Source: Arachnia sp. (lineage in GTDB: Bacteria > Actinomycetota > Actinomycetes > Propionibacteriales > Propionibacteriaceae). Taken from it: a stretch of 64,000 nucleotides of DNA. Location: positions 1,326,638 to 1,390,637 of the forward strand of contig JASGHR010000001.1 in assembly GCA_047602285.1 (NCBI GenBank), given 5' to 3'. Both the position numbers and the translations under genes were made by a program. The notes beneath the pieces are model-generated. The model was not told the DNA's origin. It did no database searches and was given only the letters and a program-made list of their open reading frames with translations. This document shows, piece by piece, positions 1,700 to 58,935 of the stretch. The first letter of the stretch is position 1. The number at the start of each line of letters is the position of its first letter.

Positions 1700-2280
1700 C
1701 GCGTTGGACGGCAGCCTATCCTGCCTGCCCCTCGCCACCAGGCGACCCATCTCGCCCCACCGCCCCCTGAGGAGCAGCGCCGCCAGCTCACACGCGTGGA
1801 CCTTTCGACCACGGCGTTCAGCGTCACCTCACGGCTGACACAAGGAACGATCCCTGAGGAGCCATCTCGCCCACCGCCGTTCCCTGAGGAGCAGCCCCGC
1901 GAGCTAACCGGCCCCAAGCAAGAACCGTGCGGGACTGCCTCGAAGGGTCCGAACGATCCCTGAGGAGCCATCTCGCCAGGCCAACCACACCCAGCGAGAA
2001 CCATGCGAGATGGCGTCTCGAAGGGTCCGAGACGCGGTCAGGGAGACGCACCAGCATTCGCATGGAGTTTTGACGCACAACCCTGTCTTCTCTGCCCAAA
2101 TGGGCACAGACAGCGGAGTTGTGCGTCAAAATTCCATGCACCCCGACGAGAGACAGCCCAAGGCTGCGCCTCACGGCCTATCTCGCTCCACCGATCCCTG
2201 AGGAGCAGCCCCGCCAGCTCACCGACACCGAGCAAAACCTCGCGCGGGGCCGCGTCTCGAAGGGTCCGAAACCAAGCAGA
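1700..2280. repeat. Intergenic structured repeat block C1 (E1 family, reverse orientation)
   Basis: Three copies of GTCTCGAAGGGTCCGA (about 1938, 2015, 2253) are paired with CCCTGAGGAGCAGCCCCGC-type cores (about 1764, 1883, 2195). The same cores recur in six other blocks of the window. Confidence 0.85.
2061..2138. repeat. 78-nt nested hairpin H1 inside block C1
   Basis: Arms CATGGAGTTTTGACGCACAAC (2061-2081) and GTTGTGCGTCAAAATTCCATG (2118-2138) match 20/21 as reverse complements. Inner stems are CTGTCT/AGACAG and GCCCA-aa-TGGGC. Confidence 0.8.
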
Positions 2281-2333
2281 CATCGACCAACGAAGACCGC
2301 CGCCCTCTGCCCGTAGCGAGCACCGGAGCTAAG

Positions 2334-2870
2334 TTGAGGTTCATGGACCATGCGATGACGGTCGGCGCTGTGGACGTTCACTACGACGACGAGCACGGCA
2401 CTGCGCGAGCTGCGCTTGTCGTGTGCCGTGGCCTGACCTTTGCCGACGTGCAGTCCGAGCACGTGGCTGACGTCGCCCGGACGGCGCCGTACGAGCCAGG
2501 TGCGTTGTACAAGCGGGAACTGCCCTGTATCGCGGCCGTACTCGCTCTAGGACCGTCCGTCGACCTGCTGGTCATCGACGGCTACGCCACGCTGGACGCC
2601 GACGGTCGCCCCGGGCTGGGCGCGCACGCGTCCGAGGCGTTGCGCATCCCCGTTATCGGCGTGGCGAAGACGCGATTTCGCACGGCGGCGCATGCAGCCG
2701 AGGTGGTGCGCGGCGCGGGTGTCAGCCCGTTATACGTCACCACCGCGGGAGGGCTCGACATCGCCCAAGCCGCGCGGATCGTGTCCACGATGGCCGGGCG
2801 CTACCGGATCCCGGACGCCCTCCGTCGGGCCGACCGCCTCGCACGAGGCCTCATCCAACCCCGCCAGTAG
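2334..2870 (+). CDS. nfi: endonuclease V-like protein
   Basis: Motifs AVDVHYDD...ARAALVV, LLVIDGYATLDADGRPGLGAHASEAL and PVIGVAKTRF resemble the EndoV catalytic core. TTG start at 2334 follows GGAG at 5-nt spacing; ATG alternatives are at 2343 and 2355. Confidence 0.55.
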   Translation: MRFMDHAMTVGAVDVHYDDEHGTARAALVVCRGLTFADVQSEHVADVARTAPYEPGALYKRELPCIAAVLALGPSVDLLVIDGYATLDADGRPGLGAHASEALRIPVIGVAKTRFRTAAHAAEVVRGAGVSPLYVTTAGGLDIAQAARIVSTMAGRYRIPDALRRADRLARGLIQPRQ

Positions 2871-2951
2871 TACCCCGGACGGCCTACTCAGGTATCTCTC
2901 GCGGCCATGCCGAATCGACGCCTTGGGGGACGAAGGCAAAGCTCCGGCTGA

Positions 2952-3341
2952 TCACCGGCTGACCCACGGATCCTGCAACAAGGAACTGGGTTCGAAGTAC
3001 TCGCCGTCGTCCTCAGCCGCCACGCAGACGCCCGCAACCACGTACCCGTCGAACGCCCCAGCTCGAACGATGAAGATCGTCGTGTCCTCCGAGGTGAGAA
3101 GCCCGGTCTCCGTGGAGATCCCCGCGGCCTCGACCGGATCCGCTTCGGCGACGACGAGCCCCTCCAGCACGGCCGGCAACTTCATCGCCTTGACGTTCTG
3201 GAAGAGCACGTCAAGGCGGGTCGCGAAAGTCTCCGACTTGGCGCTTCGCAGCAGCAGGCGCGCCATGCCGACCGAGTAGGCCCAAACCTGGAACAGCCGA
3301 TCGGTCTGTTCGATGACGACGGCGCTCACTGTGGCACCCAT
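2952..3341 (-). CDS. hypothetical small protein (immunity-like, last gene of a 3-gene unit)
   Basis: ATG at 3341. It overlaps the upstream ORF by 16 nt. The 129-aa translation has LLLRS...RLDVLFQNV, seen in conserved actinobacterial hypothetical proteins. Confidence 0.55.
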   Translation of the reverse strand: MGATVSAVVIEQTDRLFQVWAYSVGMARLLLRSAKSETFATRLDVLFQNVKAMKLPAVLEGLVVAEADPVEAAGISTETGLLTSEDTTIFIVRAGAFDGYVVAGVCVAAEDDGEYFEPSSLLQDPWVSR

Positions 3342-3694
3342 GGATTCTCGACAGGCTCCTCACTGAGCCCCGCTGACAACAGGCTGGCCTCGATCTCCTG
3401 CATGCTCGGCCGGTAGTGGCGCCGAGGCTGCATCCGCAACTCACTCATCGTCGGCAAAGCCCGCGATGGGCCCCGGTTCCCGCCGGGCACCTCGGTCGCG
3501 CCACCTTCAAGGCCACTGGCGAGAGGCACACCGAGAGCACACAAATCGGGGAGAGCTGACAGGCCCGTCAGCACCAGCCGCTCGGCCTCCCCTGTCCCGA
3601 AGAGACGCGCGACCACCGGGGACTTCTGTCCCATGATGACCACCTCGACGCGATCCGGGAAGTGCCCGACGGCGAAGCTTAGCTGTGTGCTCAT
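3326..3694 (-). CDS. hypothetical protein
   Basis: ATG at 3694 overlaps the upstream stop (ATGA at 3691-3694). 122 aa, co-oriented with its neighbours. Confidence 0.45.
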   Translation of the reverse strand: MSTQLSFAVGHFPDRVEVVIMGQKSPVVARLFGTGEAERLVLTGLSALPDLCALGVPLASGLEGGATEVPGGNRGPSRALPTMSELRMQPRRHYRPSMQEIEASLLSAGLSEEPVENPWVPQ

Positions 3695-3942
3695 CCGTCG
3701 TATGGCTGATTGGGCTTGAGGCTGAAGCGGAGTAGGTCCTTGACCCTGGCCCTCAACGATCGCGCATCCTCCGAGGTTCCGCCGAGCCGCGTCGCGAACT
3801 CCCCCTCATCCACGGCCTCCAGCGCCTCAGTGAGCGAATTCGCCAGGAGAACCAGTTCGTCTCGTGTCGCCACGATCACAACTTCGTCGTCGAGGACCTC
3901 ATCCTCACCGACCCATGAAGAATCACGATGGAGTTGCCGCAT
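3691..3942 (-). CDS. hypothetical small acidic protein
   Basis: ORF 3691-3966 was trimmed to the ATG at 3942, which is preceded by GAGGTG at 6-nt spacing. 83 aa, acidic, with a helical-looking sequence. Confidence 0.45.
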   Translation of the reverse strand: MRQLHRDSSWVGEDEVLDDEVVIVATRDELVLLANSLTEALEAVDEGEFATRLGGTSEDARSLRARVKDLLRFSLKPNQPYDG

Positions 3943-4132
3943 CCGATTCACCTCGATCCAATTCAAGACGTAATGCTAGCCGCCGTCCCGAGCGGTCGCT
4001 TCAGCGCCCGCACCCCGCCAGCCTATGGCTACGGTGCTGCGCGCGAGGCCGAAGTCACCTCTCTGGCCAAGCCATCTGACCAGCGCTCGCGTCGGCGTGA
4101 CGCTGCTCCCGTCTTCCGCTCAGGCCGCCAGA

Positions 4133-4492
4133 CTAACCACGCCGCACGAGTCGCGAGTCGAAGCCGTTGGCGGCCTGCCCGGCCGACTCATCGGTCACGG
4201 TGAACGCGCCGCACGTGCAAACGAGCTTGCAGTCCTCCGACCACAGGATCAGTTCGACGGTCCACTGCCCTGCGGTCGCCTGGCGGGCATGAACCTCGGT
4301 CACTTCGGCGTAGGTCCACGGCTCGGGTATGGAGTTCGTGAAGTGCAAGCCGGAAACGCCGGAGCACACCAAATCGTAGGACGTAGTCACATCCCCATCG
4401 ACGACGTCGATCTGAAGCACGAGGCGGTGCGCGACAGGCTCAAAGCGGACCGACGCGAGCTGCCCGCCCCAAAGAGCGTCAGTAGTGGGCAT
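4133..4492 (-). CDS. hypothetical protein (immunity-like)
   Basis: ATG at 4492 is preceded by a perfect AAGGAGG. The 119-aa translation starts MPTTDALWGGQLASVRFEP... Confidence 0.6.
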   Translation of the reverse strand: MPTTDALWGGQLASVRFEPVAHRLVLQIDVVDGDVTTSYDLVCSGVSGLHFTNSIPEPWTYAEVTEVHARQATAGQWTVELILWSEDCKLVCTCGAFTVTDESAGQAANGFDSRLVRRG

Positions 4493-4882
4493 CAGCCACC
4501 TCCTTGAATTCAGCAACCATCGAGAGGATGCCGTTCAGCAAGGACTCATCGATACTCACAAAGCTTAGTGCAGCGTCGGTGGAGGCCTCAGGCGTTGCCG
4601 CGCACGATCAGTGGCCGGCTTGAACTCGCCTGCTCTCATGAGTGCGCCCGTTCGACGAGACCGGCAGCCCTCCGGAATCGGGTATTTCGCGCCCGCTGAG
4701 AATCAGGTATGCACTACTCTGAGTTAACCCCCGGAGGCAAGGTTGCCGAAAGAATCTGCTCTGCACCCACCCCGGGGCGATGGACGACATGATCAACGAC
4801 ATCCGAAGGGCGGCACTCGTGGCCAGCACGACAGCAACTCAGCGACACCTCGCCCTTTTCAGCGGCCAACCCAACTGACGAC

Positions 4883-5323
4883 ATGGTTTCCTGGCGAGAC
4901 GCGGCCTCCCAGCAGGCCCAAGATGATCTAGACGGTCTGCTCGGACCGGCTCTTGAATTTGCCCAACAACAGCTGGACAAGCGCGGCGAGTTCCATCCCT
5001 ACGCGGTCGTCGTCGACGTAGCTGGACAGCAGCGGATGGTCATGGCAGACATCGCCAGCAATCCGCCCGCCTCGGCTGACCTGATCACCAGACTGATCGC
5101 CGCGCTCTCGGAGGACCGTGACAGCCTGCGGGCGGCTGCGATCGTCGCCGATGTCCGGCTCCCAGAGACCGGCAGCGACGCTGTCCGCGTCACCCTGGAG
5201 CACGCCGAACATGTCGCACTCTCAGTCTTCCTGCCCTACCGACGTCGGTGGCTCGGCCGCAGGATCGACTACGGCGATCTCCAAGCGGGCGCGGCAGCAG
5301 CGCTCATCTGGCCAGGCAACTAG
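4883..5323 (+). CDS. hypothetical protein
   Basis: 146-aa ORF divergent from 4133-4492. Coding-like composition; no motif recognised. Confidence 0.5.
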   Translation: MVSWRDAASQQAQDDLDGLLGPALEFAQQQLDKRGEFHPYAVVVDVAGQQRMVMADIASNPPASADLITRLIAALSEDRDSLRAAAIVADVRLPETGSDAVRVTLEHAEHVALSVFLPYRRRWLGRRIDYGDLQAGAAAALIWPGN

Positions 5324-5410
5324 GTCGTGTTGCGAAAGTGGAAGTGGCCTACTGAACGACGCCCTGCCGCGCCGGGAAGCCGCTCACCACGGCCACCACT
5401 TCGGTAAGGA

Positions 5411-5925
5411 CACCGTTCCTTGAGCCGGCCGTGAGGCGCTAGCCGAACGCCGTGTCGAAAGGTCCCGCACCCGTCCGCCAAGTCGACCACGAGGGCAGCC
5501 CGGCTCTGTGACCACAGTCACTCTTGCTCTCAGTGCATGGATGTTCTTACGCTTCGACGAAGCGCCTCCCCACCTCACCCTCTGTCATCTCCCAGGGCGG
5601 CGGACCGCCGTCCTCCCTCACCGTGACCAACGTTGGCCAGTCTTGCGGCGGTTTCCCTGCACAAATCTCCGTATACGGGCAGCGGCGCAACTATTCGCGC
5701 GGCTGCCCATATACAAAGAATTGTGCGTGGTGGAGGGTGCGACACTGGCTCTTGGAGATAGGTCGGGCTGTGGGTTTCGGACCCTTCGAGACGCAGCCCC
5801 GCAGGATTCTCGCTCGGCGTCAGTCAGCGAGCGGGGCTGCTCCTCAGGGACCGACCGTCGTGCGCTGCTCCTCAGGGACCGGCCGTGGCCCGACCGTGGT
5901 GCGCCGCTCCCTTGGATCCCGAACT
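5411..5925. repeat. Intergenic structured repeat block C2 (E1 family, forward orientation)
   Basis: Module A variant CCGTTCCTTGAGCCGGCCGTGAGGCGCTAGCCGAACGCCGTGTCGAAAGGTCCCGC runs 5413-5468. It is followed by hairpin H2, then GGACCCTTCGAGACGCAGCCCCGC...GCGGGGCTGCTCCTCAGGGACCG (about 5779-5861). Confidence 0.85.
5659..5726. repeat. Hairpin element H2, copy 1
   Basis: GCACAAATCTCCGTATACGGGCAGC (5659-5683) faces GCTGCCCATATACAAAGAATTGTGC (5702-5726) as an imperfect inverted repeat. A better-preserved copy lies at 29829-29896. Confidence 0.75.
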
Positions 5926-6057
5926 CAGCACCCAGCCGTGGTCGTTAGAGCCGAAACCAGGGGCAAGGAGTTGCGGCAGCAAGCTCAGGGCACCCATCTC
6001 ATCGGAGGCCGACCGGGTCTGCGTGAACCACACCATTTCGGCTTTTCGCAACACGAC

Positions 6058-6648
6058 CTAGCCCAGCGCCGTCAGCCCACACTTGGCTTCCTTACGCACC
6101 CATGCACGCTCGTCGGTGAGCATCGACTCAAGCCCGGCGCGCGCTCGCGGATCCTTGAGCTTTCGCAGCGCAGCCACCGCATGACCATTCACGGCAGGAT
6201 CGTCCAGCAGCTCAAGGGCCACGTAACAGGCGTCCGGGTTCTTCGAACGCCCCAATCCGAGAACGACCATCTCGCGGTCCCGGCCGTACGAGCGTTCACG
6301 AGCCAGGGCGACTAACTCGTCGAACCACCGGTCATCCCACACCACCTCGAGGGCGTTCCCGACAATCCAGCGCAACCCGGGCTCAGTCTCGCCATCAACC
6401 TTCTTGAACTCCTCGATGAGCGGTCCCACCGCGGACGGCTTCGCCCACGGAACACTGAGAGCCCTCACCAGCTCACCCTTGACCATCCGATTCGTTGCAC
6501 GCTGCAAACTGGCAAGCAGCACGGGGATAGCATCCCGATACCTGCCTCCCGACGTCCGCAGATCAGCAATCGACGGGACGACGTAGCCCACCGCGGCCAG
6601 ATCCCGGAGGACCTCCTCCTCGCGCGGCACCGGATAGATGTACATCAC
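6058..6648 (-). CDS. HEAT-repeat protein (immunity-like)
   Basis: 196 aa with repeated helical units: ...AIPVLLASLQ..., ...VRALS..., and LLDDPAVNGHAVAALRKLKDPRARAGLESMLTDERAWVRKEA. Confidence 0.6.
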   Translation of the reverse strand: MMYIYPVPREEEVLRDLAAVGYVVPSIADLRTSGGRYRDAIPVLLASLQRATNRMVKGELVRALSVPWAKPSAVGPLIEEFKKVDGETEPGLRWIVGNALEVVWDDRWFDELVALARERSYGRDREMVVLGLGRSKNPDACYVALELLDDPAVNGHAVAALRKLKDPRARAGLESMLTDERAWVRKEAKCGLTALG

Positions 6649-6654
6649 CCCAGC

Positions 6655-6915
6655 CTAGTGATGTAGACGAACGTCCACCTGACGTCGGTCGCGTTCCCGA
6701 AGCCGGAAGACGACCTCCTCCATCGAGTCGAAAAGCTCAGGCGTGGGCAACTCGAAGAGGGCCTTCGACAGGAAGTCGTGATCCGACGAGTCCAGCTCGA
6801 TGTCCTCAGCGCTATGGACAGCTTCGGCCCAGCGTTCGAGCATGACTGGCGATAGAGCACCTTGGCTGAGCGCTTCGTGAGCTCGTCGAAGAGCGGCGCG
6901 GTCCAGGCACGACAA
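6655..6915 (-). CDS. hypothetical small protein
   Basis: 86-aa ORF, co-oriented in the array. It has a TTG start with only a weak RBS, so the boundaries are uncertain. Confidence 0.35.
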   Translation of the reverse strand: MSCLDRAALRRAHEALSQGALSPVMLERWAEAVHSAEDIELDSSDHDFLSKALFELPTPELFDSMEEVVFRLRERDRRQVDVRLHH

Positions 6916-6969
6916 AGATCCACTTGGCCGCGACTCCAGTCGTCTCGGCCTTCGAACGCTGCGTCGAGA

Positions 6970-7254
6970 TCAGGGCCCCAGGCCATACGTCGCGTCTTCC
7001 CACAGATGATCGGTGAGTTCGCGGCGAGCATCGAGGATCGCGCCGAGACCTTCAAGATCACGAATAACGTCGGGCTCGAGCCCTATGCTCCATTCGTAGA
7101 TCTGGGTGCACAGCGTCTCGAACGCTACGAGCCACTCACCTCCATCGATCAGCGACTGCACGTTACCGATGTCGTCCGGCGTGAGTCCCGCAGCTGCGTC
7201 GATCGCCTTGTGAAGTCTCACGGTCATCTCCTCAGGACCCGGTCTCGTGGTCAT
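6970..7254 (-). CDS. MafI-like immunity protein
   Basis: About 90 aa with LIDGGEWLVAFETLCTQIYEWSI, the pattern I associate with the MafI immunity family. ATGA overlap with the upstream ORF at 7251-7254; an alternative ATG is at 7227. Confidence 0.5.
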   Translation of the reverse strand: MTTRPGPEEMTVRLHKAIDAAAGLTPDDIGNVQSLIDGGEWLVAFETLCTQIYEWSIGLEPDVIRDLEGLGAILDARRELTDHLWEDATYGLGP

Positions 7255-7519
7255 CGGAGGAGCACCAAGCGCCCCTCGACCAGTCGAAACTCGTACCGAT
7301 GCCCGACCGCGTCAGAGACCACAAGAAGACCATCACTCCAAGTGGCACCATCTACCACCTCACCGAGTTCAATCCTCGACACCTCCGATGCACCGACCAA
7401 GCTACGAACCGAGGACTCGCAGACCAACAGAAGAACACTGCCACTCCGGAAGACATAGCGGATGTCGTCATCCACAGTGATAATGCGTCGGTCCGGGTCA
7501 TCCTCCCAGTCGAGAACCA

Positions 7520-8587
7520 CTAGTGTCCCGTGTTTGAAGTCTGTTTACGGTGGGCTTTGGTGAGGATGTCGTCTGCGGTTTTGGTCCACACGAATGGTTC
7601 GCAGCGTTCGTTCCAGCCATCGATGAAGGTCTCGATCGCGGTGACGAGTTCTTTGACGCTGGTGAAGGTGCCTCGGCGAATGGCTTGACGGGTGATGATC
7701 CCGAAGAAGATCTCGACCATGTTCAGCCACGACCCGGAGGTTGGGGTGAAGTGCATCGTGATCCGGGGGTTCTTCGCCAGCCAGGCCTTGATCTTGGGGT
7801 GCTTGTGCGTGGCGTAGTTGTCGGCCACCACGTGCAGCTTGACCCGAGGGTAGGTCTTCGCGGTGAGCTTGAGGAAGTCGAGGAACTCGGCATGGGTGTG
7901 GCGTTGGTAGCAGCGGTCGGTGACCTTCCCGGTCGCGACCTCGAGCGCGGCGAACAGGCTGGTGGTGCCGTTGCGGACGTAGTCGCGGGTGGCTCTTTCT
8001 GGCAACCCGGGTCGCAGCGGAAGGATCGGCGCGGTGCGGTCTAGGGCTTGGACCTGGGTCTTCTCGTCGACGCAGACCACGACCGCTTTCTCGGGCGGGT
8101 TCAGGTAGAGCCCCACCACATCGCGGACCTTTGCGTCTAGCTCGGGATCGGTGGAGAACTTGAACGTTCCACGCCGCCAGGGCTGCAGTTTCCACTTGCG
8201 CCAGATCCGGGCGACCTCACCAAAGGAGATCCCCAACTCCTGACCCAACAGCCGCGCCGACCAGTGCGTCACCCCCAACGAGGCCGGCGGCGGAGTCAAC
8301 GTCGCGACCACGACCGCGTTCTCATCGATCACCGCGGGGCGACCCGACCGAGCCAGATCACTCAACGCCTCGATACCACCGGCCTCGTAGCGAGACCGCC
8401 ACAGGTTCACCGTTGGACGCGATACCCCAACCTGCCGACCGATCTCGGTGTTCGACTCACCAGCGGCGGCCAACAATACGATCCGGGCCCGCTGGGCCAA
8501 CCCCGCCCCCACCGTCGAGGACCGGACAAGCGAGCTCAGCCTCGCCTCATCACCAGGACGCAGAACCAGCGGGGACGCTATCGACAT
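7520..8587 (-). CDS. IS630-family transposase
   Basis: The N-terminus shows the helix-turn-helix pattern ...RARIVLLAAAGESNTEIGRQVGVSRPTVNLWRSRYEAGG.... The C-terminal DDE region includes ...VVCVDEKTQVQAL..., ...LHVVADNYATHKH... and ...SGSWLNMVEIFF.... ATG at 8587. Stop TAG at 7520-7522 uses the duplicated TA. Confidence 0.85.
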   Translation of the reverse strand: MSIASPLVLRPGDEARLSSLVRSSTVGAGLAQRARIVLLAAAGESNTEIGRQVGVSRPTVNLWRSRYEAGGIEALSDLARSGRPAVIDENAVVVATLTPPPASLGVTHWSARLLGQELGISFGEVARIWRKWKLQPWRRGTFKFSTDPELDAKVRDVVGLYLNPPEKAVVVCVDEKTQVQALDRTAPILPLRPGLPERATRDYVRNGTTSLFAALEVATGKVTDRCYQRHTHAEFLDFLKLTAKTYPRVKLHVVADNYATHKHPKIKAWLAKNPRITMHFTPTSGSWLNMVEIFFGIITRQAIRRGTFTSVKELVTAIETFIDGWNERCEPFVWTKTADDILTKAHRKQTSNTGH

Positions 8588-8639
8588 ACCCCATTGTCTC
8601 AACCAACCACCGTAAACCTATTTACGACACGCGACACTA
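7521..8639 (-). mobile_element. IS630-family insertion sequence with TA target duplication
   Basis: The 1115-bp element (7523-8637) is flanked by TA at 7521-7522 and 8638-8639. The 31-nt imperfect terminal inverted repeats, GTGTCCCGTGT...TTTACGGTGG and the reverse complement of CCACCGTAAA...ACACGCGACAC, match 23/31. It carries a single transposase ORF. Confidence 0.85.
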
Positions 8640-8840
8640 GCTCCCGCGCAGACCACAGACAGACGACACCACCCACAACCTCCAGCGACACATCACACCA
8701 TCCAGCCATCGTAAAATGCCGCTCTGAGTGTCCATCAACGCAGAGGTGAACCGCAGCGGTCATACTCTGTCCACAATGAACGGCGTCAATCTCGTAGCGA
8801 CGCCCCCTGTTCTCTACGTACCTAGAATAGGTTGACCCTC

Positions 8841-8984
8841 TCATAACTGCCCCATCTGGATCGAGCCTGCATCTGCGGCCTCACGCCACGCTCCCGGCGC
8901 TATCAGCCCATAGGCGATGATGCCCCGCTTTTCCTCACCATCGACGATGATCGTCAGATTGTCTCGAGCAAGCAACGATCTCAT
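8841..8984 (-). CDS. possible 47-aa micro-ORF
   Basis: ATG at 8984 lies 11 nt after the upstream stop and is preceded by GGTGAGGGGGA. Its stop overlaps the next start (ATGA at 8841-8844). Support is positional only. Confidence 0.3.
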   Translation of the reverse strand: MRSLLARDNLTIIVDGEEKRGIIAYGLIAPGAWREAADAGSIQMGQL

Positions 8985-8994
8985 CGAATCCCCC

Positions 8995-12754: not shown

Positions 12755-12785
12755 CTTCCATATCGACGCAATCGGCGTCGAACCG

Positions 12786-29779: not shown

Positions 29780-29828
29780 AAAACTGCTGATCCGTCAGGT
29801 GTCGGCTGCGTCGGAGAGGGGTCCGCGT

Positions 29829-30680
29829 GCACAAATCTCTGTATACGGGCAGCCGCGCAATTATTCGCGTGGCTGCCCGTATACGGAGATTTGTGCGCGT
29901 GTGAGGGTGTGACTCCTGGTCTGCGGGGATCGCGAGTGTGGGTTTCGGACCCTTCGAGACGCAGCCCCGCGAGATCCTCGCTCGGTGTCAGCAGATCTGC
30001 GGGGCCGCTCCTCAGGGACCGATCCTTGAGCCGAGCCCCCGCGCGAAGCGCCGGGGCTCGTGTCGAAAGGTCCCGCACTCGCGCAGGAGGCCGCGGCAGC
30101 ATCGCCAGCGCTGGAGTAACGGACCCTTCGAGACGCAGCCCCGCATCAGTTCCGCTCCGCGCACGTCGCCCTGCGGGGCCGCTCCTCAGGGACCGATCCT
30201 TGAGCCGAGCCGCGACGACACCGGTCCTTGAGCCGAGCCCCCGCGCGAAGCGCCGGGCTCGTGTCGAAAGGTCCCGCGCGAAGCGCAGGAAGCCACGGCA
30301 ACATCGCCAGCGCTGGGGTAACGGACCCTTCGAGACGCAGCCCCGCATCAGTTCCGCTCCGCGCACGTCGCCCTGCGGGGCTGCTCCTCAGGGACCGATC
30401 CTTGAGCCGAGCCGCGAAGACACCGATCCTTGAGCCGCGCCCCCGCGCGAAGCGCCGGGCTCTTGGTCGTTAGGTCCCGCACCCGCACGGAGGACCGACC
30501 TAGCACCCCCAAGCACTACCATCGCAGACCGGCATCGGTTTCGGACCCTTCGAGACGCAGCCCCGCAGCAGTTCCACTCGGCGCACGTCGCCCTGCGGGG
30601 CTGCTCCTCAGGGACCGGTGTGGGCTGCTCTCCTCAGGGACCGATGCCGGTTGCTCCTCAGGGACCGACGTGCTCGCACA
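29829..30680. repeat. Intergenic structured repeat block C3 (E1 family, forward), led by hairpin H2 copy 2 (29829-29896)
   Basis: H2 arms GCACAAATCTCTGTATACGGGCAGCC / GGCTGCCCGTATACGGAGATTTGTGC match 25/26. Four GGACCCTTCGAGACGCAGCCCCGC...GCGGGGC(T/C)GCTCCTCAGGGACCG units follow (about 29945, 30120, 30322, 30543). They are interleaved with CCTTGAGCCGAGCCCCCGCGCGAAGCGCCGGG(G)CTCGTGTCGAAAGGTCCCGC modules. Confidence 0.9.
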
Positions 30681-50589: not shown

Positions 50590-52110
50590 GCCAACCGCGA
50601 AGCGCACGTCGTTCCTTGAGCCGGGCCCCCGCGCGAAGCGCCGGGCCCGCGTCGAAAGGTCCCGCACCAACACACCAAGGCCAGCCACAACCGGCCACTG
50701 CCGCCATCGAGCACCAAGCCGTCGGAGACACACCGCTCGGCAACCGGACCCTTCGAGACGGCGCCGCAACACCTCACACTCGGCGCAGATCAACCATGCG
50801 GCGCCTCCTCAGGGACCGACCGCAGCAACCGCACCTCAGGCCCGACCTCAAGACAGACCGAGAGATGACTCCTCAGAGCCGACCGTGGCGCACACGTCAC
50901 ACCTTGAGCCGACCTTGGAGCACGCCGTTCCTTGAGCCGGGCCCCCGCGCGAAGCGCCGGGCCCGCGTCGAAAGGTCCCGCACCAACACACCCACGCCGA
51001 CCACAACCGGACCCTTCGAGACGGCGCCGCAACACCTTCTACTCGGCGCAGTCACCACTCGGCGCCTCCTCAGGGACCGACCCCAGCAACCACGCCGCGG
51101 ATCCGCTGTTCCACTTCGGCCACGGTCCCTCCTGCCCGCGCTGCCCGCGGCACTCACCCGAGCGACTGATGAAATCCTCACGCCAGTCGTAAGACGCACG
51201 CCGTTCCCTGGGTCGACCGCGAAGCGCAGGCCGTTCCTTGAGCCGGGCCCCCGCGCGAAGCGCCGGGCCCGCGTCGAAAGGTCCCGCACCAACACACCCG
51301 GGCCAACCACAACCGGCCCGCGCAAACCGACGCCTTGGCCATCACGCCCTGCCCACTCCCGTCATCGAGCACCATGCCGTCGAGAACACACCGCCCGACA
51401 ACCGGACCCTTCGAGACGGCGCCGCAACACCTCCACTCAGCCCAGGTCAGCCACGCGGCGCCTCCTCAGGGACCGACCCCAGCAACCACACCTCAGGCCC
51501 GACCTCAAGACAGACCGAGAGATCGCTCCTCAAGAGGCGACCGTGGAGTACGGCGTCACACCTTGAGCCGACCGTGGAGCACGCCGTTCCTTGAGCCGGG
51601 CCCCCGCGCGAAGCGCCGGGCCCGGGTCGAAAGGTCCCGCACCAACACACCCGGGCCAACCACAACCGGCCACTGGGCTTGACCCTGCCGTCATCGAGCA
51701 CCATGCCGTCGAGAACACACCACCCGACAACCGGACCCTTCGAGACGGCGCCGCAACACCTCCACTCAGCCCAGGTCAACCACGCGGCGCCTCCTCAGGG
51801 ACCGACCCCAGCAACCACACCTCAGGCCCGACCTCAAGACAGACCGAGAGATCGCTCCTCAAGAGCCGACCGTGGAGCACGGCGTCACACCTTGAGCCGA
51901 CCGTGGAGCACGGCGTCACACCTTGAGCCGACCGTGGCGCACGCCGTTCCTTGAGCCGGGCCCCCGCGCGAAGCGCCGGGCCCGCGTCGAAAGGTCCCGC
52001 ACCAGCGCACCCAGGCGAACCACAACCGGACCCTTCGAGACGGCGCCGCGACAACTCCCACTCGGCGCAGGTCAACCATGCGGCGCCTCCTCAGGGACCG
52101 ACCCAGCAGC
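50590..52110. repeat. Intergenic structured repeat block C4 (E1 family, forward): tandem array of five composite units
   Basis: The anchor GTTCCTTGAGCCGGGCCCCCGCGCGAAGCGCCGGGCCCG starts at 50611, 50927, 51233, 51586 and 51946 (spacings 316/306/353/360 nt). Each unit also carries GGACCCTTCGAGACGGCGCCGC...GCGGCGCCTCCTCAGGGACCGAC. Confidence 0.9.
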
Positions 52111-52139: not shown

Positions 52140-52733
52140 GTGCTGCTCTTTCTCTTCGGACCGCCCGCCGTCGGCAAGATGACTGTGGGGCGCGCCGTGT
52201 GCGCACGCACCGGGTTTCGACTCTTTCACAACCACATGACCATCGAGCCGCTGGTGGAGACGTTCGGCCACGGGTCGCCGCAGTTCAACGTCCTCAATGA
52301 GGAGTTCCGGCGACGCGTGCTGGAGGAGGCCGCGGCAGGCGGCATCGATCTGCTGTTCACCATCGTCTGGGGCCTCGACCTCGCGGAGGACCTCGAGCTC
52401 ACGAAGAACAACATCGCGATCTTCGACGGCGACGTGGCCTTCGTCGAGCTGCGCGCCGACCTCGACACCCGACTCAACCGCAACCACACGCCCGAGCGGC
52501 TGGCGGACAAGCGCTCCAAGCGCGACCTGGCCTGGTCGGACGAGAACGTGCGCTCCATGGACGTGCACCTCATGACCAGCGTCCGGCCCAGCATCGCCGA
52601 CGAACTCCTCCAGGCCTACCCGCACCTCGTCGTCGACAACACGCACCTGACCCCAGACGAGGCGGCCGATCGCATCGCGGCCTGGGTCGCGACCCTCCCT
52701 CGTCCCTCCTCGGCAGCGGCCGAGCACCGCTGA
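52140..52733 (+). CDS. P-loop kinase-like ATP-binding protein
   Basis: GTG start. Walker A is GPPAVGKMT. The 197-aa size and layout are typical of small nucleotide/sugar-kinase-like (AAA_33-type) proteins. Confidence 0.55.
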   Translation: MLLFLFGPPAVGKMTVGRAVCARTGFRLFHNHMTIEPLVETFGHGSPQFNVLNEEFRRRVLEEAAAGGIDLLFTIVWGLDLAEDLELTKNNIAIFDGDVAFVELRADLDTRLNRNHTPERLADKRSKRDLAWSDENVRSMDVHLMTSVRPSIADELLQAYPHLVVDNTHLTPDEAADRIAAWVATLPRPSSAAAEHR

Positions 52734-53104: not shown

Positions 53105-53899
53105 CTACACCTGATGGACGGCGACGCCGGCGTCGCGGATCGGCTCCAGGTTCGACTCCGGGGTCTCGACGCCCGTGATGAGCAGGTCGATGTCGGACAG
53201 CGGGGCGACGCGGGCGAGCTGCGTGCGTCCGATCTTGGTGCTGTCGGCGACCAGCACGCGCTTCCGGGACGACTCCATGAAGCGCTTTTTCATGATCACC
53301 TCGGGCATTGACGAGTTGGTGACGCCCTCAGCGGAGACGCCGTTGCAGCCGATGAAACAGATGTCGCCCCGGATCAGGCCCATGAACATGTCGCCCAGCG
53401 GGTCGACCAGCGAGTGCTGCTTGTGCCGCACCGTTCCGCCCGTCACCCCCACCGTGAACTGGTGCTCGCCGCGCTCGAATTCGAAAGCAATGGTAAGCGA
53501 GTTGGTGAAGACGACGACGCCGGACAGGTCGTCTCGCGCGAGGAGCGCGCGGGCGACGGCGGTGGTCGTTGAGCCCGCATCCATGAGCACCGACTGATCC
53601 GTCGACACCATGGCAGCCGCCGCATGCCCGATCCTGCGCTTCTCGCTCGTCGCCCGCGTCATCGCGAGTTCGAGCGCCGGTTCTGTCGCCAAAGCGCGGT
53701 GACCAGCGACAGCACCGCCGTGCACGCGCTCGATCACATGCGCCTCGGCGAGTGCGTCGAGGTCCGTGCGGATGGTGACCTCGGAGACCTGGAACGCGCG
53801 GCTCAGCTCCGTGACCCGAGCGAATCCCTGGCGCTCGATGATCGAGACGATCTGCTCGCGCCGGACCGACGCGGGGAGGATCGGCGAAACCTGTGCCAT
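53105..53899 (-). CDS. DeoR/GlpR-family transcriptional regulator
   Basis: The ORF was trimmed to the ATG at 53899. The HTH is RREQIVSIIERQGFARVTELSRAFQVSEVTIRTDLDAL, followed by a DeoR C-terminal sensor region. Confidence 0.85.
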   Translation of the reverse strand: MAQVSPILPASVRREQIVSIIERQGFARVTELSRAFQVSEVTIRTDLDALAEAHVIERVHGGAVAGHRALATEPALELAMTRATSEKRRIGHAAAAMVSTDQSVLMDAGSTTTAVARALLARDDLSGVVVFTNSLTIAFEFERGEHQFTVGVTGGTVRHKQHSLVDPLGDMFMGLIRGDICFIGCNGVSAEGVTNSSMPEVIMKKRFMESSRKRVLVADSTKIGRTQLARVAPLSDIDLLITGVETPESNLEPIRDAGVAVHQV

Positions 53900-54106
53900 G
53901 CGGAAACGATACCCACCAGGAGCGCAAGCTATCGAAAGCGCTCGACGCACCGGCCACCCCACGCCATTCACCCTGCGTCGCCTCACGATGAGACCTCGCA
54001 GATCCCATCGTGGACGTCATCCATGTCCGGCAGCAGGCGATGACCTGGCAGCACCCGAGGTGCATCAGCGCTCCATCGAAGACGGCTGACACAAGCAAGG
54101 TAGACC

Positions 54107-54429: not shown

Positions 54430-54830
54430 GGCTCACGCCGATCCCTGAGGAGCAGCCCCGCCGGCTGACAGAACCCCGGCCTCGGCCACGCGGGGATGCG
54501 TGCTCGTTGGGTCCGAAACCCACGCCTTCAGCGAGGCATGGCCGCCCTGCTCCAACTCCCCGTCCACGGGTTTGCAGACCGAACGACCACGTACCCGCCG
54601 CACCGCGCGCAACACTCAGCACGGCCCGGCTCAGGAACGGCCCACAGGCATGGTGCCCCCCGGACGAAGCCAAGGCCAAGAACCACACCCACCGCCCGCT
54701 CTTCGCGCGGGCTGGCCCAGACCGCTCCCTGAGGAGCAGCCCCGCCCGCTGACCGGACGCCGGCCTCGGCCGTGCGGGGCCGCGTGCTCGTGGGGTCCGA
54801 AACCGACGCCTTCGCGCGCCCTTTGGATCC
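54430..54830. repeat. Intergenic structured repeat block C5 (E1 family, reverse, degenerate)
   Basis: Two units CCCTGAGGAGCAGCCCCGC...GCGGGG(A/C)(T/C)GCGTGCTCGT(T/G)GGGTCCGAAACC lie at about 54442-54520 and 54727-54805. Confidence 0.8.
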
Positions 54831-54903: not shown

Positions 54904-55869
54904 TCAGCGCGGCGCGGCGAACAGCGTGTCGATCGCCGCCAGGGTGGCTTTGTCGAGCACCGTCGCTCCGGCTTCCACGTTCTGGGCGACCTGCTCCGCG
55001 CGCGTCGCTCCGGCGATCACGCTCGTGATCCCCGTGCGGCTGAGCAGCCAGGCGAACGTGGCGCCGAGCATGGAGACGCCGGCATCCGCACAGAGCACAC
55101 GGTAGGCATCGAGCTGATCCCAGTCGACGTCGCCCAGTCGGTCGACAGAGGCCGCGGCCGAACGCAGGCGACCCTCCTCGCCACCGTCGCGGGTGTACTT
55201 GCCGGTCAGCAGCCCGTTGGCCAGCGGGAAGTACGGGAAGAAGCCCAGGCCGAGGCCGACAGCGGTCGGCAGGACATCGCGCTCCGCACCCCGGTCGAGC
55301 AGCGAGAAACCGTTCTGCGCCGAGACGAACCGCACGAAGCCGTTCTCCCGCGCCACAGCATCGGCCTCCTGGGCCTGCTCAGCGGAGAAGTTCGAGTGTC
55401 CCACGTGACGCAGCTTGCCCTCTTCAACCAGCTCGGTCAGCGCCGACAACGTCTCACCGATCGGAGTCCCAGGGTCCGGCGTGTGCATCTGGAGCAGGTC
55501 GATGCGGTCCGTCCGGAGCCGCCTGAGCGATGCGTCGACGGCGTTCCTGATGTACGTGCGGCCGCCCTTCGGTCCCCACTCCTCACTGCCAGGAACCGTG
55601 CGCCCGGAGTTACCGAACTTCGTGGCGAGAACCACCTTGTCGCGACGCCCGGCAAGCGCCTCACCCATGAACTCCTCACTCCGCCCCGGCTCGCCGCCGT
55701 AGATGTCGGCGCCGTCGAGGAAGGTGATGCCCGCATCAACAGCCGCATGAATCACACGCACACTGCCCTCCAGCGACTCCGTCGCGCTGTTCGGCCGACT
55801 GAAGTTGTTACAGCCGAGCCCCACGGCGCTGACGACGAGATCGGACATGCCCACAGTGCGTTGTTCCAT
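54904..55869 (-). CDS. aldo/keto reductase
   Basis: The ORF was trimmed to the ATG at 55869 (MEQRTVGMSDLVVSAVGLGCNNF...). It shows an AKR-typical layout ending ...ATRAEQVAQNVEA. Confidence 0.8.
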   Translation of the reverse strand: MEQRTVGMSDLVVSAVGLGCNNFSRPNSATESLEGSVRVIHAAVDAGITFLDGADIYGGEPGRSEEFMGEALAGRRDKVVLATKFGNSGRTVPGSEEWGPKGGRTYIRNAVDASLRRLRTDRIDLLQMHTPDPGTPIGETLSALTELVEEGKLRHVGHSNFSAEQAQEADAVARENGFVRFVSAQNGFSLLDRGAERDVLPTAVGLGLGFFPYFPLANGLLTGKYTRDGGEEGRLRSAAASVDRLGDVDWDQLDAYRVLCADAGVSMLGATFAWLLSRTGITSVIAGATRAEQVAQNVEAGATVLDKATLAAIDTLFAAPR

Positions 55870-55974
55870 GCTCACCAGGCTAGACGGAAAGCAGCCCATC
55901 ACTGGGTGTCGCCCACGGCCTTCCGGCCCATAGGGCCATCGATGACCGCACCCTGTGCGGCAGACTCCAGGGCC

Positions 55975-56475
55975 GTCGTTGACCGAAACCCGCTACCGCG
56001 ACTCCCTGCCCATACTCTCGGACCTTTCGACACAGCGTTCGGCTGCGCCTCACGGCCGGCTCAAGGAACAACACCGCGGTCACGACTCCCCGGACCGACT
56101 CACAGACCGGTCCCTGAGGAGCAGCCCGCCCGCCAACCTCATACCGCGCCAAAACCCCGCGGGCTGCGTCTCGAGGGGTCCGAAACCCGCGGCCCACAGG
56201 TCCCGCTACCGCGACTCCCTGCCCACATGCCCGGACCTAACGACCACGGCGTTCGGCTGGCGCCTCACGGCCGGCTCAAGGAACAACCTCGCTGTCACAC
56301 CTCCTCAGAGACCGACTCACAGACCGGTCCCTGAGGAGCAGCCCGCTCGCCGGCCTCACGCCGAGCCAAACCCCCGCGGGCTGCATCTCGAAGGGTCCGA
56401 AACCACGGCCCACAGGTACCCCTACCGCCACTCCCTGCCCACACGCCCGGACCTTTCGACACGGCGTTCGGCTAG
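55975..56475. repeat. Intergenic structured repeat block C6a (E1 family, reverse), truncated by IS1182
   Basis: Units GGTCCCTGAGGAGCAGCCCGC...GCGGGCTGC(G/A)TCTCGA(G/A)GGGTCCGAAACC alternate with GGACCTTTCGACAC(A/G)GCGTTCGGCT(G)GCGCCTCACGGCCGGCTCAAGGAAC modules. The last module is cut at CTAG (56472-56475). Confidence 0.85.
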
Positions 56476-58314
56476 GAGACTGCTGATTAAAGGGCGCGCC
56501 TTCCGGGGTTGTCGGGCTGGGCTGGGATCCTGTGTGCATGCTGGGTGAGTCGGGTCGGCAGCGTGAGTTGCTGGATGTGGAGTCGGTTGCTGGGCACCTG
56601 CTTGAGCCGGGGAGCGTGTTCGCGTTGCTGGCCGGGCATCGGGACCGGTTGTTCCCGAGCGAGTTGTTCGCTGACCTGTTCCCGACCGGGCGTGGTCGGC
56701 CCTCGATCCCGGGCGAGGTGATCGCCTCGGTGATCGTGCTCCAGGCGCTTTACGGCCATTCGGACCGCGAAGCGGTTGACGCGTTGACCTTCGATCTGCG
56801 GTGGAAGGCAGCGTGCGGGTACGCGATCGACGCGAAGGGCTTCGACTCCTCGACGTTGACTCACTGGCGGCGCCGGTTGGCTGCGAGCCATCGGCCGCAG
56901 CGGATCTTCGAGGTGGTCCGCGACGTCATCGCTGAAACGGGTGCGGTGGCCGGCAAGCAGCGTCGGGCGCTGGACTCCACGATCCTTGATGACGCGGTGG
57001 CCCGGCAGGACACCGTGACCCAGTTGATCGCCCAGATTCGTCGGGTCGGCCGTGAGGTGCCCGGCGCCAAGGACCTGATCGGGGTGCAGTGCACCCGGCT
57101 GGCCGCGTTTACTGGGCAGGACTACGACTCGACCGGGAAGCCGCCGATCGCGTGGGATGACCCGGCTGCCCGTGACGAGTTGGTCTCCGCGCTGGTCGGT
57201 GACGCGCTGGCGCTGCTCGCCGCGCTGGATGTCGAGGCAATCAGCAAGGCGGGCGGGAAACCGGCCGATGCGGTCGCGCTGCTGGCTCTGGTCGCGGGTC
57301 AGGACGTGGAACCGGCCGAGGACTCCGACGGCACCGACGGCCGGTGGCGGATCGCCCGCAAGACCGCTCCCGATCGGGTGATCTCGACCGTCGACCCCGA
57401 CACCCGACATGCCCACAAGACCCGGGAACGACGCCAGGACGGGTTCAAAGCCCACGTCGTGGTCGAGCCCGATACCGGGCTGACCATGGTGTGCGAGCTG
57501 ACCAAGACCAACGGGCCGGACAACTCCGACGCCACCGTCGGTGCCGAGCTGGTCACTGCCGACTCGACCCTCGCGGCCGACCAGCAGGTCGAGGTGCTCG
57601 GGGACTCGGCCTATGCCACCGGCGACATGCTCCATGAACTCGATAAGAAGAAGTGGATTCCGCTGCTCAAGCCGTGGCCGCTCAAGCCCGCCGTTGAGGG
57701 TGGCTTCACCATCGACGATTTCACCTTCAACCCTGACGCCGACACCATGACCTGCCCGGCCGGGATCACCAGGAGACGGTCCGCGAAGGGCGCCGTCACG
57801 TTCGGGGCCGCCTGTCGCGGCTGCCCGTTACGGGAGCAGTGCACCACCGCGGTATCTGGCCGCGCTCTGCTGCTGGGCGAGCATCACCAACTGCAACGCG
57901 AGCACCGTAAACGCGCAACGGACGAAGGCTTCCGGGCCGACTACCGGCAGCACCGACCGATGGTCGAACGCTCGATCGCCTGGCTCACCCGCGGCGCCCG
58001 TCGCGTCCCATACCGAGGCGTCGAGAAGAACAACAACTGGCTCCACCACCGCGTCGCCGCCCTCAACCTGCGACGACTCCTCGCCATGGGCCTCACGATG
58101 ACCGACGAAGCCTGGGCCCTGGCCTGACCAGACCGACACGGCCTCAGTCCCGATCACTTGCACCCGGCCCCCGGGACCACACAAGATCACCGACAGCGGG
58201 CGGAACGACCCCACTGCCGCACCCAGAGCGCTAACTCAAACTCCCCGCTCCACAGCCTCGACAACCTTCCGCCCGCCACCCACACCACCAGATGACGAGT
58301 TGTTCAGCAGTCTC
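56476..58314 (+). mobile_element. IS1182-family insertion sequence flanked by CTAG
   Basis: 1839 bp. The terminal inverted repeats are GAGACTGCTGA (56476-56486) and TCAGCAGTCTC (58304-58314). CTAG lies on both sides (56472-56475 and 58315-58318). Intact copies of the target module carry a single CTAG, for example GCGCTAGCCG near 5440 and GGCTAGCGCC near 58890. Confidence 0.85.
56532..58127 (+). CDS. IS1182-family (IS5-like DDE) transposase
   Basis: 531 aa. The N-terminus ...LFPSELFADLFPTGRGRPSIPGEVIASVIVLQALYGHSDREAVDALTFDLRWKAACG is characteristic of the family. The start is GTG at 56532 or ATG at 56538. Confidence 0.85.
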   Translation: MCMLGESGRQRELLDVESVAGHLLEPGSVFALLAGHRDRLFPSELFADLFPTGRGRPSIPGEVIASVIVLQALYGHSDREAVDALTFDLRWKAACGYAIDAKGFDSSTLTHWRRRLAASHRPQRIFEVVRDVIAETGAVAGKQRRALDSTILDDAVARQDTVTQLIAQIRRVGREVPGAKDLIGVQCTRLAAFTGQDYDSTGKPPIAWDDPAARDELVSALVGDALALLAALDVEAISKAGGKPADAVALLALVAGQDVEPAEDSDGTDGRWRIARKTAPDRVISTVDPDTRHAHKTRERRQDGFKAHVVVEPDTGLTMVCELTKTNGPDNSDATVGAELVTADSTLAADQQVEVLGDSAYATGDMLHELDKKKWIPLLKPWPLKPAVEGGFTIDDFTFNPDADTMTCPAGITRRRSAKGAVTFGAACRGCPLREQCTTAVSGRALLLGEHHQLQREHRKRATDEGFRADYRQHRPMVERSIAWLTRGARRVPYRGVEKNNNWLHHRVAALNLRRLLAMGLTMTDEAWALA

Positions 58315-58935
58315 CTAGCGCCTCACGGCCGGCTCAAGGAACGACCTCGCTCAGGGACCGGCTCACAGCGATCCCTGAGGAGCAGCCCGCCCACCAACCT
58401 CACACCACGCCAAACCCCGCGGGCTGCATCTCGAAGGGTCCGAAACCACGGCCCACATGCACCGCTACCGCGGCTCCCTGCCCACGCTCCCGGACCTAAC
58501 GACCACGGCATTCGGCTGGCGCCTCACGGCCGGCTCAAGGAACGAACACGCTGCCGTGACTCTCTGCCACGCTCTCGGACCTAACGACCACGGCATTCGG
58601 CTGGCACCTCACGGCCGGCTCAAGGAACAACACCGCTGCCGCGACTCCCCGGACCGGCTCACAGACCGGTCCCTGAGGAGCGGCCCGCTCGCCAACCTCA
58701 CACCACGCCAAACCCCGCGGGCTGCATCTCGAAGGGTCCGAAACCCACAGCCCACAGGTACCGCTACCGCGGCTCCCTGCCCACACTCCGGGACCTTTCG
58801 ACACGGCGTTCGGCTGCGCCTCACGGCCGGCTCAAGGAACAACACCGCTACCGCAACTACCCGCCCACATCCCCAGGCGTTTCACGGCGTTCGGCTAGCG
58901 CCTCGCGACCCGCTCAAGGAACAACACCACACACG
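58315..58935. repeat. Intergenic structured repeat block C6b (E1 family, reverse), continuation after IS1182
   Basis: It resumes the interrupted module (CTAGCGCCTCACGGCCGGCTCAAGGAAC). Two further GGTCCCTGAGGAGC...ATCTCGAAGGGTCCGAAACC units and several module-A variants follow. Confidence 0.85.

Follow-up and report, generated by a model that had tools for sequence, protein, structure and literature searches.

Hairpin-forming palindromic repeats of Arachnia and other Actinomycetota: probable REP-like DNA units in BIME-like mosaic clusters

A 64,000-nt stretch of Arachnia sp. DNA (GenBank assembly GCA_047602285.1, contig JASGHR010000001.1, positions 1,326,638 to 1,390,637), here called the window, carries a family of modular, hairpin-forming repeats gathered in six intergenic clusters. 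We consider these repeats to be, more likely than not, palindromic DNA units like the REP (repetitive extragenic palindromic) sequences of other bacteria, arranged in mosaic clusters like bacterial interspersed mosaic elements (BIMEs), non-autonomous and probably selfish. The conserved foot of the units, their alternating inverted subtypes, their mosaic clusters, their tandem and inverted arrangements, their patchy distribution and the harmless lengths of their copies in genes lead to a REP/BIME reading, with a likeness to the Rickettsia palindromic elements (RPEs) in coding DNA. An earlier note on the window, made from its letters alone, had offered a REP/BIME-like element, a family of MITEs (miniature transposable elements with inverted repeats) or a multicopy structured RNA; the first option fits best, and in-frame copies within genes count against the last, so that a terminator or RNA-gene function is unlikely. 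The family goes beyond the usual REP picture in its order-spanning basal clamp, its short and long unit forms and its recurrent in-frame occupancy of housekeeping genes. The coordinates of all features are collected in Table 1.

The head of the B units, GGACCCTTCGAGAC, is matched 24 times in the window with at most two mismatches, compared with 0.93 matches expected, and none of 100 shuffled sequences contained as many; the tail motif of module A is matched 11 times (0.43 expected). All head and tail matches fall within the repeat blocks, except for a single two-mismatch match at 36262. A unit-by-unit census yields 19 complete B units, equal to the number of B-core copies counted in the earlier note, and 16 A units, of which 15 are complete and one is split by an insertion sequence (IS), giving 35 units in total; about 10 orphan fragments, tails or hairpins with a tail, lie within the same blocks. 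The motif excess and the common fold of every intact unit establish the hairpin-forming modular family as real. Ten of the B units are on the + strand and nine on the - strand, and there is no bias relative to replication. The repeat blocks add up to about 5.0 kb, or about 8% of a window that has a G+C content of about 68% and no tRNA genes, and a gene map based on codon-position G+C and Pfam matches places none of them over a supported gene, in agreement with the first estimate. A 359-aa open reading frame (ORF) at 925-2004, which reaches into block 1, proves to be a GATase1-like gene of 248 aa that ends at 1671. Seven blocks had originally been delimited, and each of them does contain units, but their number falls to six clusters, because the blocks at 55975-56475 and 58315-58935 are one cluster that an IS has split.

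One and the same hairpin, a clamp plus a stem, is formed by all 34 intact units, also when DNA folding parameters are used. Its basal clamp is formed by the head GGACCCTTCGAGAC pairing with the tail CTCCTCAGGGACC, and consists of the helices CCCT:AGGG and GAG:CTC, parted by a fixed TC bulge and an AC/TC internal loop, with outer GG/CC pairs that flank an A·A mismatch. Above the clamp, a B unit has an upper stem of 8-10 bp, rich in G+C, and a loop of 25-30 nt. The units of the window are 50-75 nt long; across the family, the stems have 4-11 bp and start with a G:C pair, and the loops have either 3 or 25-30 nt.

Module A is a diverged copy of the B-type hairpin unit in inverted orientation. Read on the other strand, it becomes GGACCTTTCGAC, a hairpin and GGCTCAAGGAAC, where the A head is identical to the B head at 12 of 14 positions and the A clamp has CCTT:AAGG in place of CCCT:AGGG, a compensatory change from C:G to T:A. 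The earlier description of A and B as distinct modules that pair at long range is therefore replaced: the complementarity between the A tail and the B head exists because each unit closes on itself and A is an inverted copy, and a model built only from foreign B units detects A units on the opposite strand (see below).

In clusters that contain both subtypes, the A and B units always lie on opposite strands and alternate, spaced by 0-110 nt tail to tail and by 30-119 nt head to head, with linkers that are specific to each cluster and repeated within it. Extra copies of a half-stem plus tail often trail complete units (at 5868, 30630 and 30654, and in the 31-nt repeats at 51863-51947), and the heads in block 5 are variants, GGACCC[CA]ACGAGCAC. 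The loop of the long-form B unit is not free to vary, as its central GCTCGG(C/T)G is found again from cluster to cluster and also in the metagenome-assembled genome (MAG) of a Tessaracoccus; the long form is therefore a distinct subfamily with its own conserved insert. Among seven triloop types, taken from six short units in other genomes (L002, L015, L017, L018) and from the tip of the window's A units (GCGC-GAA-GCGC, for example in unit 50611-50662), five are, on one strand, GAA or GCA closed by C:G, which we take to be the ultra-stable d(C-GNA-G) DNA mini-hairpin. This preference hints that the folding strand is DNA and not RNA.

The pairing of the stems is maintained as their sequences change. 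The complementary arms quoted in the earlier note are correct (GCAGCCCCGC/GCGGGGCTGC in C2 and C3, GGCGCCGC/GCGGCGCC in C4 and GCAGCCCGC/GCGGGCTGC in C6), and three alignments agree that the stems covary. In a hand-registered alignment of 22 distinct units with loops removed, 94% of the cells pair, compared with 79% after column shuffles and at most 49% when the partners are slid, although re-registering three rows for indels leans these figures slightly towards structure; 7 of its 17 pairs are changed on both sides, in 39 cells. An unsupervised MAFFT/RNAalifold alignment of 19 full-length units arrives at the same clamp and stem, four of its pairs covarying, and a gap-free alignment of eight short units from other genomes has five pairs with double changes, a value as high as none of 500 shuffles gave. 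Diverse stems, including GCAGCCCCGC, GCCATCTCGC, GGCGCCGC, GGTCGC, GATCGC, GCTCGC and GGTTGC, are perfectly paired. G:T and A:C intermediates are equally frequent, and therefore the functional strand cannot be read from them. Of the earlier proposal that compensatory change reflects selection on a secondary structure, the maintenance of pairing stands; the changes do not by themselves separate such selection from mechanisms that regenerate palindromes.

The family is also present in other genomes. Scanning one genome per species with the pattern head-N(35-65)-tail found at least five loci with an exact head plus tail; among the matches listed are the Tessaracoccus MAG, which has the same long-form B units, A units and long palindrome P2 (described below) as the window, Gryllotalpicola ginsengisoli and Janibacter hoylei (both Micrococcales), and an uncultured Actinomycetota MAG, with two contigs. 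Four further contigs with an exact head plus tail came from a scan of metagenomes. The chance expectation for 27 specified bases in these collections is far below one, and the exact matches in other Actinomycetota and in metagenomes mean that copies are not confined to the 64-kb window. At least two actinobacterial orders have exactly the same 27-nt clamp, and the upper stem varies. Five other Propionibacteriaceae-like genomes, T. bendigoensis among them, were covered with about 100 kb of non-redundant sequence and yielded no unit; with units in distant genomes and none in these relatives, the distribution is therefore patchy. For the window's clusters, a comparison with orthologous empty sites meets relatives that are not syntenic.

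Outside Tessaracoccus the units are short (36-41 nt) and have the same clamp, which usually closes a 15-nt hairpin of 6 bp and a 3-nt loop with the consensus GNTCGC-NNN-GCGANC. They occur singly, in inverted pairs and in head-to-tail arrays with a period of 36 or 45 nt, in which the tail overlaps the next head (CTCCTCAGGGACCCTTCGAGAC) at a GGGACCC junction. A covariance model built only from eight of these foreign short units, when run on the window, matches 17 of the 19 B units over its full length (E from about 1e-11 to 5e-4) and misses the two variant-head B units of cluster 5. Of the 11 A units that it matches on the opposite strand, two score 22-26 bits (E < 0.01), and the scores of the other nine are about 14-16 bits (E of 0.27-0.84). 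The model has no other match elsewhere in the window and finds no coding copy there.

The window's copies are all intergenic, and the earlier note accordingly described an intergenic family, a description that does not hold for other genomes, where units lie in frame within genes and keep the reading frame open. The gene ybaK, encoding a Cys-tRNA(Pro) deacylase, contains three in-frame units (L003 1457-1569) that add SLRRAGNARLEG three times; a mutA-like gene, related to the small subunit of methylmalonyl-CoA mutase, contains two direct units and an inverted one (L005); pheT has a single unit in a loop of the tRNA-binding domain and an inverted pair further on, both in frame (L018); and a septum-formation-like ORF contains an in-frame 45-nt array (L002). 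These intragenic units occur in both orientations relative to the mRNA. When 16 YbaK proteins, chosen by length among the 120 best homologues, were aligned, about 10 of them had one to three 12-residue inserts at the same loop position, in several lineages; examples of the added residues are RSLRRSRSDRPEG, GSLRRTRSARLEG and, in decayed form, RSPRTTATARPGG. Both of the proteins nearest to the three-unit YbaK (P0123 and P0124; 89% and 85% identity) lack a unit. The hairpins of the one-unit and three-unit alleles, GGTCGC-GCA-GCGACC and GGGCG-GGCAA-CGCCC, differ by a compensatory pair. Repeated insertions at this site, or one old insertion that was cleanly lost several times, are both possible histories. 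An empty ybaK allele (L014) reads GCCGTCTCG there, a sequence similar to a unit's 3' end that may be a footprint.

Within the window, the clusters expanded in place as whole A-linker-B-linker periods were duplicated, and they are not young. All-against-all BLAST comparisons find 270-530-nt matches with 84-88% identity within clusters and only the unit of about 80-90 nt, with 78-87% identity, in common between them; the exception is a 200-nt composite of palindrome P1, linker and B unit that clusters 2 and 3 share. Tandem periods have lengths of 202 nt (2.3 copies, 92% identity, in cluster 3), 217 nt (2.3 copies, 87% identity), 85 nt and about 330-360 nt (five copies). Two A units located 51 kb apart have the same sequence, a sign of recent copying or conversion. 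In cluster 6, an IS5/IS1182-like element with the terminal inverted repeats GAGACTGCTGA sits at a CTAG in the hairpin loop of an A-type unit, and rejoining the two halves without the IS restores an exact copy of unit 5415-5465. The IS is not part of the repeat family, and its insertion shows that cluster 6 is older than it. The insertion also serves as an example of a repeat hairpin being used as an IS target.

Two additional long palindromes, P1 and P2, with a lower G+C content, accompany B units in blocks 1 to 3. P1 has a near-perfect 33-bp stem (z = -12 in DNA folding), and its copies, at 29826-29899 and, degraded, at 5659-5726, each lie upstream of a B unit, at a distance of about 50 nt. 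P2, with a length of about 80 nt (z = -8.9), is also found beside a B unit in the Tessaracoccus MAG (L001 1985-2065). In Rfam, P1 and P2 found only sub-threshold look-alikes of miRNA precursors.

We now compare the family with known systems. It resembles the REP and BIME elements of Enterobacteria and Pseudomonas (and their REPINs, mobilised via RAYT/TnpA-REP) in its units, which are short imperfect palindromes rich in G+C whose foot is conserved and whose stem varies, in the inverted alternation of two subtypes with characteristic linkers in intergenic clusters, as in BIMEs, and in inverted pairs that can fold into a longer hairpin. ISs are known to insert into REP units, and here too an IS lies within a unit. 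In contrast to REPs, the units lack the GTAG (GT[AG]G) tag, their foot before the stem reading CGAGAC and, on the other strand, GAGGA; their conserved part is a two-helix clamp that closes the whole unit, not an unpaired 5' tetranucleotide; and that clamp is shared unchanged between orders, while a REP family as a rule belongs to one species or genus. The BOX elements of Streptococcus pneumoniae and the MIRUs of Mycobacterium are likewise modular or tandem small intergenic repeats, but the BOX modules A, B and C have unrelated sequences and are not inverted copies of one unit, and MIRUs are direct tandem repeats without a conserved hairpin clamp. MIRUs are themselves actinobacterial and have lengths compatible with translation. 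RPEs share with the family the in-frame insertion of palindromes into coding sequences, including housekeeping genes; they differ in being 100-150 bp long, AT-rich and confined to Rickettsia, the coding copies here being 36-nt units.

The family shares further features with the CGTC-tagged REPs (Di Nocera et al. 2013, PMC3733652), which have a GACG/CGTC-like stem foot (here GAGAC-G and C-GTCTC), no dedicated transposase known, intragenic copies and a predominance of inverted dimers. As described there, they also have stems of 8-9 bp that begin with A/T pairs, loops of 4-5 nt and a CCA tail, none of which is found here, and they occur in other phyla than this family (PMC3733652). The survey, which defines both GTAG- and CGTC-tagged REPs, covers eight phyla, and its main text does not mention Actinobacteria (PMC3733652). 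By description, the nearest thing within the phylum is TRIT (Gardner et al. 2011, PMC3152330), a conserved, GC-rich bidirectional palindrome without a U-tract, of which a Mycobacterium genome has about 150 copies close to the ends of genes. TRIT is reported to be limited to Mycobacterium and to be centred about 8 nt before stop codons, whereas the units here lie 10-450 nt past stops, and it is not reported in mosaic clusters or in-frame arrays; the two are set apart by description and not by sequence (PMC3152330).

Searches for an existing name gave the following results. Rfam 15 has no match at gathering score anywhere in the window and none at E <= 1 to the A and B units of any block, in agreement with the earlier note, which could not assign the element to a named RNA family. 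Blastn of the long and short forms against plasmids and phages returned nothing relevant (one chance match, to Halomarina), and viral contig scans with both forms had no match. A protein search with the translation of a spurious ORF in cluster 4 gave 8000 word-sharing candidates and none that was significant, a metagenome scan with the translated A/B peptide gave 600 pattern matches and none confirmed by tblastn, and HMMER with the in-frame repeat peptide found only unrelated, generic tandem-repeat proteins among 1.84 billion representatives. The open-access literature, searched with exact strings and with REP, RAYT or MITE combined with actinobacterial names, yielded no description of the family. 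On the basis of this open-access text, the family is most likely undescribed before and new among REP/BIME-like palindromic repeats.

In the REP/BIME-like reading that we favour, the units would be non-autonomous selfish DNA. We infer that a trans-acting enzyme reading the clamp and hairpin would disperse them, most plausibly on single-stranded DNA, and that a HUH/RAYT-like enzyme would be the leading candidate for this mobiliser for three reasons: the parallel with REPs, target duplications that seem to be missing and the sequences of the loops. Copies would persist only where they are harmless, either between genes or in protein loops that tolerate an insert with a length divisible by three. 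Several observations weigh against this reading. Neither the window's genes nor those beside the foreign loci include an IS200/RAYT-type transposase or another partner, and no Y1_Tnp domain is present among the genes of the 64 kb or next to the foreign loci. The tandem copies within clusters are 8-16% diverged, and there is no sign of recent activity except for one identical pair. No target-site duplication or clean junction between empty and filled sites can be defined, the flanking codons also differing in ybaK. Selection on RNA, as well as on DNA, could keep the pairing. Lastly, B units are co-oriented with transcription in all four co-directional contexts (n = 4, p of about 0.06-0.13).

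That co-orientation, which applies to both flanking genes, would also fit an RNA role, with the units acting as untranslated-region hairpins useful to the host that stabilise the upstream mRNA against 3' exonucleases, as processing sites or as terminators without a U-tract. We regard such a role as unlikely. It would agree with the position of clusters downstream of genes and with the covariation of the stems; Actinobacteria have few canonical terminators, and a conserved gene-end palindrome of Mycobacterium has been interpreted as one (PMC3152330). However, units lie within pheT and ybaK, which are essential or housekeeping genes, and within the mutA-like gene in both mRNA orientations, and neither orientation can therefore be a strong terminator. 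Units also occupy a divergent promoter region (cluster 1), form arrays of up to 10, far beyond what one 3' end needs, are not followed by a run of U/T, have no Rfam match, are patchy among relatives and prefer triloops that suit hairpins of DNA and not of RNA.

Quite improbable, in our judgement, is that the units are classical MITEs, internally deleted derivatives of a DDE-type IS whose terminal inverted repeats would be the head and tail and whose transposase would move them. The head and the tail's reverse complement do make imperfect inverted repeats (GGACCCT..GAG and GGTCCCT.GAG), two DDE transposase genes lie in the window, and the family is dispersed and patchy; yet solitary units have no target-site duplication around them, 36-41 nt is far below known MITE sizes, the ends of the window's ISs are unrelated (those of the resident IS, GAGACTGCTGA, do not match the clamp), overlapping GGGACCC junctions are a misfit for cut-and-paste insertion with duplications, and plasmid and phage collections hold nothing similar. 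We give similarly little credence to domesticated and now immobile binding sites for a host protein, such as a nucleoid-associated protein, topoisomerase or recombinase, which would maintain the invariant clamp. BIMEs of E. coli bind gyrase, IHF and Pol I, and here a clamp of 27 nt that is identical across two orders above which the stem varies, fixed unpaired clamp bases that would suit sequence-specific recognition, and window copies that are old (8-16% diverged) are all compatible with a bound site. The absence of units from about 100 kb of related Propionibacteriaceae argues against a general chromosomal requirement, in-frame coding copies and long arrays at one locus do not readily fit sites that the host needs, and no candidate protein is identified. 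By analogy with the REPs of E. coli, the REP, RNA, MITE and binding-site readings need not be mutually exclusive.

Extending the REP/BIME-like reading, we put forward, tentatively and as a possibility short of probable, that the family represents an unrecognised mobile-DNA system of Actinomycetota, in which 36-nt hairpins would be moved seamlessly and site-specifically as single-stranded DNA, would recurrently colonise loops of essential proteins (ybaK, pheT) and would have expanded in some lineages, this Propionibacteriaceae genome among them, into long-form BIME-like mosaics that take up several percent of the chromosome. REP/BIME-type elements have so far come mainly from Proteobacteria, and the order-spanning clamp provides a handle for finding the protein that reads it. 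The family would account for intergenic DNA that lacks annotation (here about 8% of 64 kb) and that gene callers may turn into spurious ORFs, and it marks 12-residue in-frame inserts of conserved proteins as derived from repeats. It also offers loci for strain typing and a test case for the survival of selfish hairpin DNA in essential genes.

Other candidate identities were tried and dropped. A CRISPR array is out, the units alternating in orientation with repeated linkers and without cas genes; an assembly or adaptor artefact is out, the hairpins being diverse, in frame in genes and present in independent assemblies; and protein-coding repeats were rejected as a reading of the units.

Table 1. 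Coordinates of the repeat clusters, their units and associated genes (window positions unless a contig or protein identifier is given; for A-type units the strand is that on which the unit reads head to tail)
Feature	Position	Strand	Remarks
Cluster 1	1762..2267	-	between divergent GATase1-like 925-1671(-) and endonuclease V 2334-2870(+)
Cluster 1 B units	1879-1950, 1955-2028, 2193-2267	-	
Cluster 1 A-type unit	1798-1848	+	
Cluster 1 orphan tails	1762-1774, 1849-1861		
Cluster 1 long palindrome P2	2060-2140		
Cluster 2	5415..5880	+	between convergent genes 4883-5323(+) and HEAT-repeat 6058-6648(-)
Cluster 2 A-type unit	5415-5465	-	module A of the earlier note reads on +
Cluster 2 degraded P1 palindrome	5659-5726		
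Cluster 2 B unit	5779-5852	+	
Cluster 2 orphan stem-plus-tail	5868-5880		
Cluster 3	29826..30666	+	between LacI-type gene 28757-29779(+) and siderophore-interacting protein gene 30945-31850(+)
Cluster 3 palindrome P1	29826-29899		near-perfect, 33-bp stem
Cluster 3 B units	29947-30020, 30121-30194, 30323-30396, 30543-30616	+	alternate with A-type units
Cluster 3 A-type units	30021-30073, 30223-30274, 30425-30477	-	
Cluster 3 orphan tails	30630-30642, 30654-30666		
Cluster 4	50611..52099	+	between DUF222 gene 48818-50164(+) and 52140-52733(+); five A/B pairs
Cluster 4 A-type units	50611-50662, 50927-50978, 51233-51284, 51586-51637, 51946-51997	-	
Cluster 4 B units	50746-50817, 51009-51078, 51404-51474, 51733-51803, 52028-52099	+	
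Cluster 4 partial A head/hairpin repeats	51863-51947		31 nt
Cluster 5	54440..54798	-	between DeoR gene 53105-53986(-) and aldo/keto reductase gene 54904-55869(-)
Cluster 5 variant B units	54440-54514, 54724-54798	-	degenerate A-like remnant between them
Cluster 6, left half	56020..56475	-	
Cluster 6 left B units	56109-56181, 56326-56398	-	
Cluster 6 left A-type units	56020-56069, 56233-56284	+	
Cluster 6 IS-cut A-type unit, 5' half	56449-56475		
IS5/IS1182-like insertion sequence	56476-58311	+	1.84 kb; CTAG duplication
IS transposase gene	56532-58127		DDE_Tnp_1_6, DUF772 and DDE_Tnp_1 domains
Cluster 6, right half	58312..58922	-	block 7 of the earlier note; ends beside LuxR-type response-regulator gene
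Cluster 6 split A-type unit, 3' half	58312-58342		
Cluster 6 right B units	58370-58441, 58668-58739	-	
Cluster 6 right A-type units	58492-58543, 58577-58628, 58791-58840	+	
Cluster 6 orphan A tail	58910-58922		
LuxR-type response-regulator gene	stop at 58949	-	
Long-form B loop examples	5803-5830, 30145-30172, 50770-50795; L001 2206-2233		
Units in pheT	L018 5008-5092, 5491-5531		phenylalanyl-tRNA synthetase beta subunit, 868 aa, all Pfam domains intact
YbaK with inserts	L003; L015 1893-1933; P0129, P0143, P0145, P0152, P0154, P0217, P0226, P0227		
IS630-like transposase gene	7520-8602		
RHS-repeat protein gene	12786-18992		2068 aa
Gene without Pfam match	18967-21558		863 aa

Between clusters 5 and 6, the aldo/keto reductase gene at 54904-55869 is flanked on both sides by clusters whose B units have the same orientation. 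Its closest matches are metagenome proteins with 77-78% identity, and its named homologues, from Tessaracoccus, Propioniciclava and Nigerium, have about 63-64% identity; by this protein the genome, a contig of 3.94 Mb, belongs to the Propionibacteriaceae. The neighbourhoods of its homologues in related genomes (L006-L013) are unrelated, and the gene may therefore have been relocated together with, or between, repeat clusters.

The largest cluster adjoins a DUF222 gene of the mycobacterial REP13E12 type (48818-50543), which contains an in-frame 18-nt tandem repeat at 49699-49900 that encodes PAxPGV-like repeats; the gene appears frameshifted where its HNH nuclease domain should start. At the other end of the window, positions 3000-21600 have a lower third-position G+C and contain several small orphan ORFs in addition to the IS630-like transposase gene, the RHS-repeat protein gene and the 863-aa gene; this region looks like a horizontally acquired polymorphic-toxin island with its left edge at repeat cluster 2. 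A small protein gene at 33345-33950, unrelated to the repeat family, consists almost entirely of RTX calcium-binding nonapeptide repeats, with tandem periodicities of 27, 54 and 108 nt.

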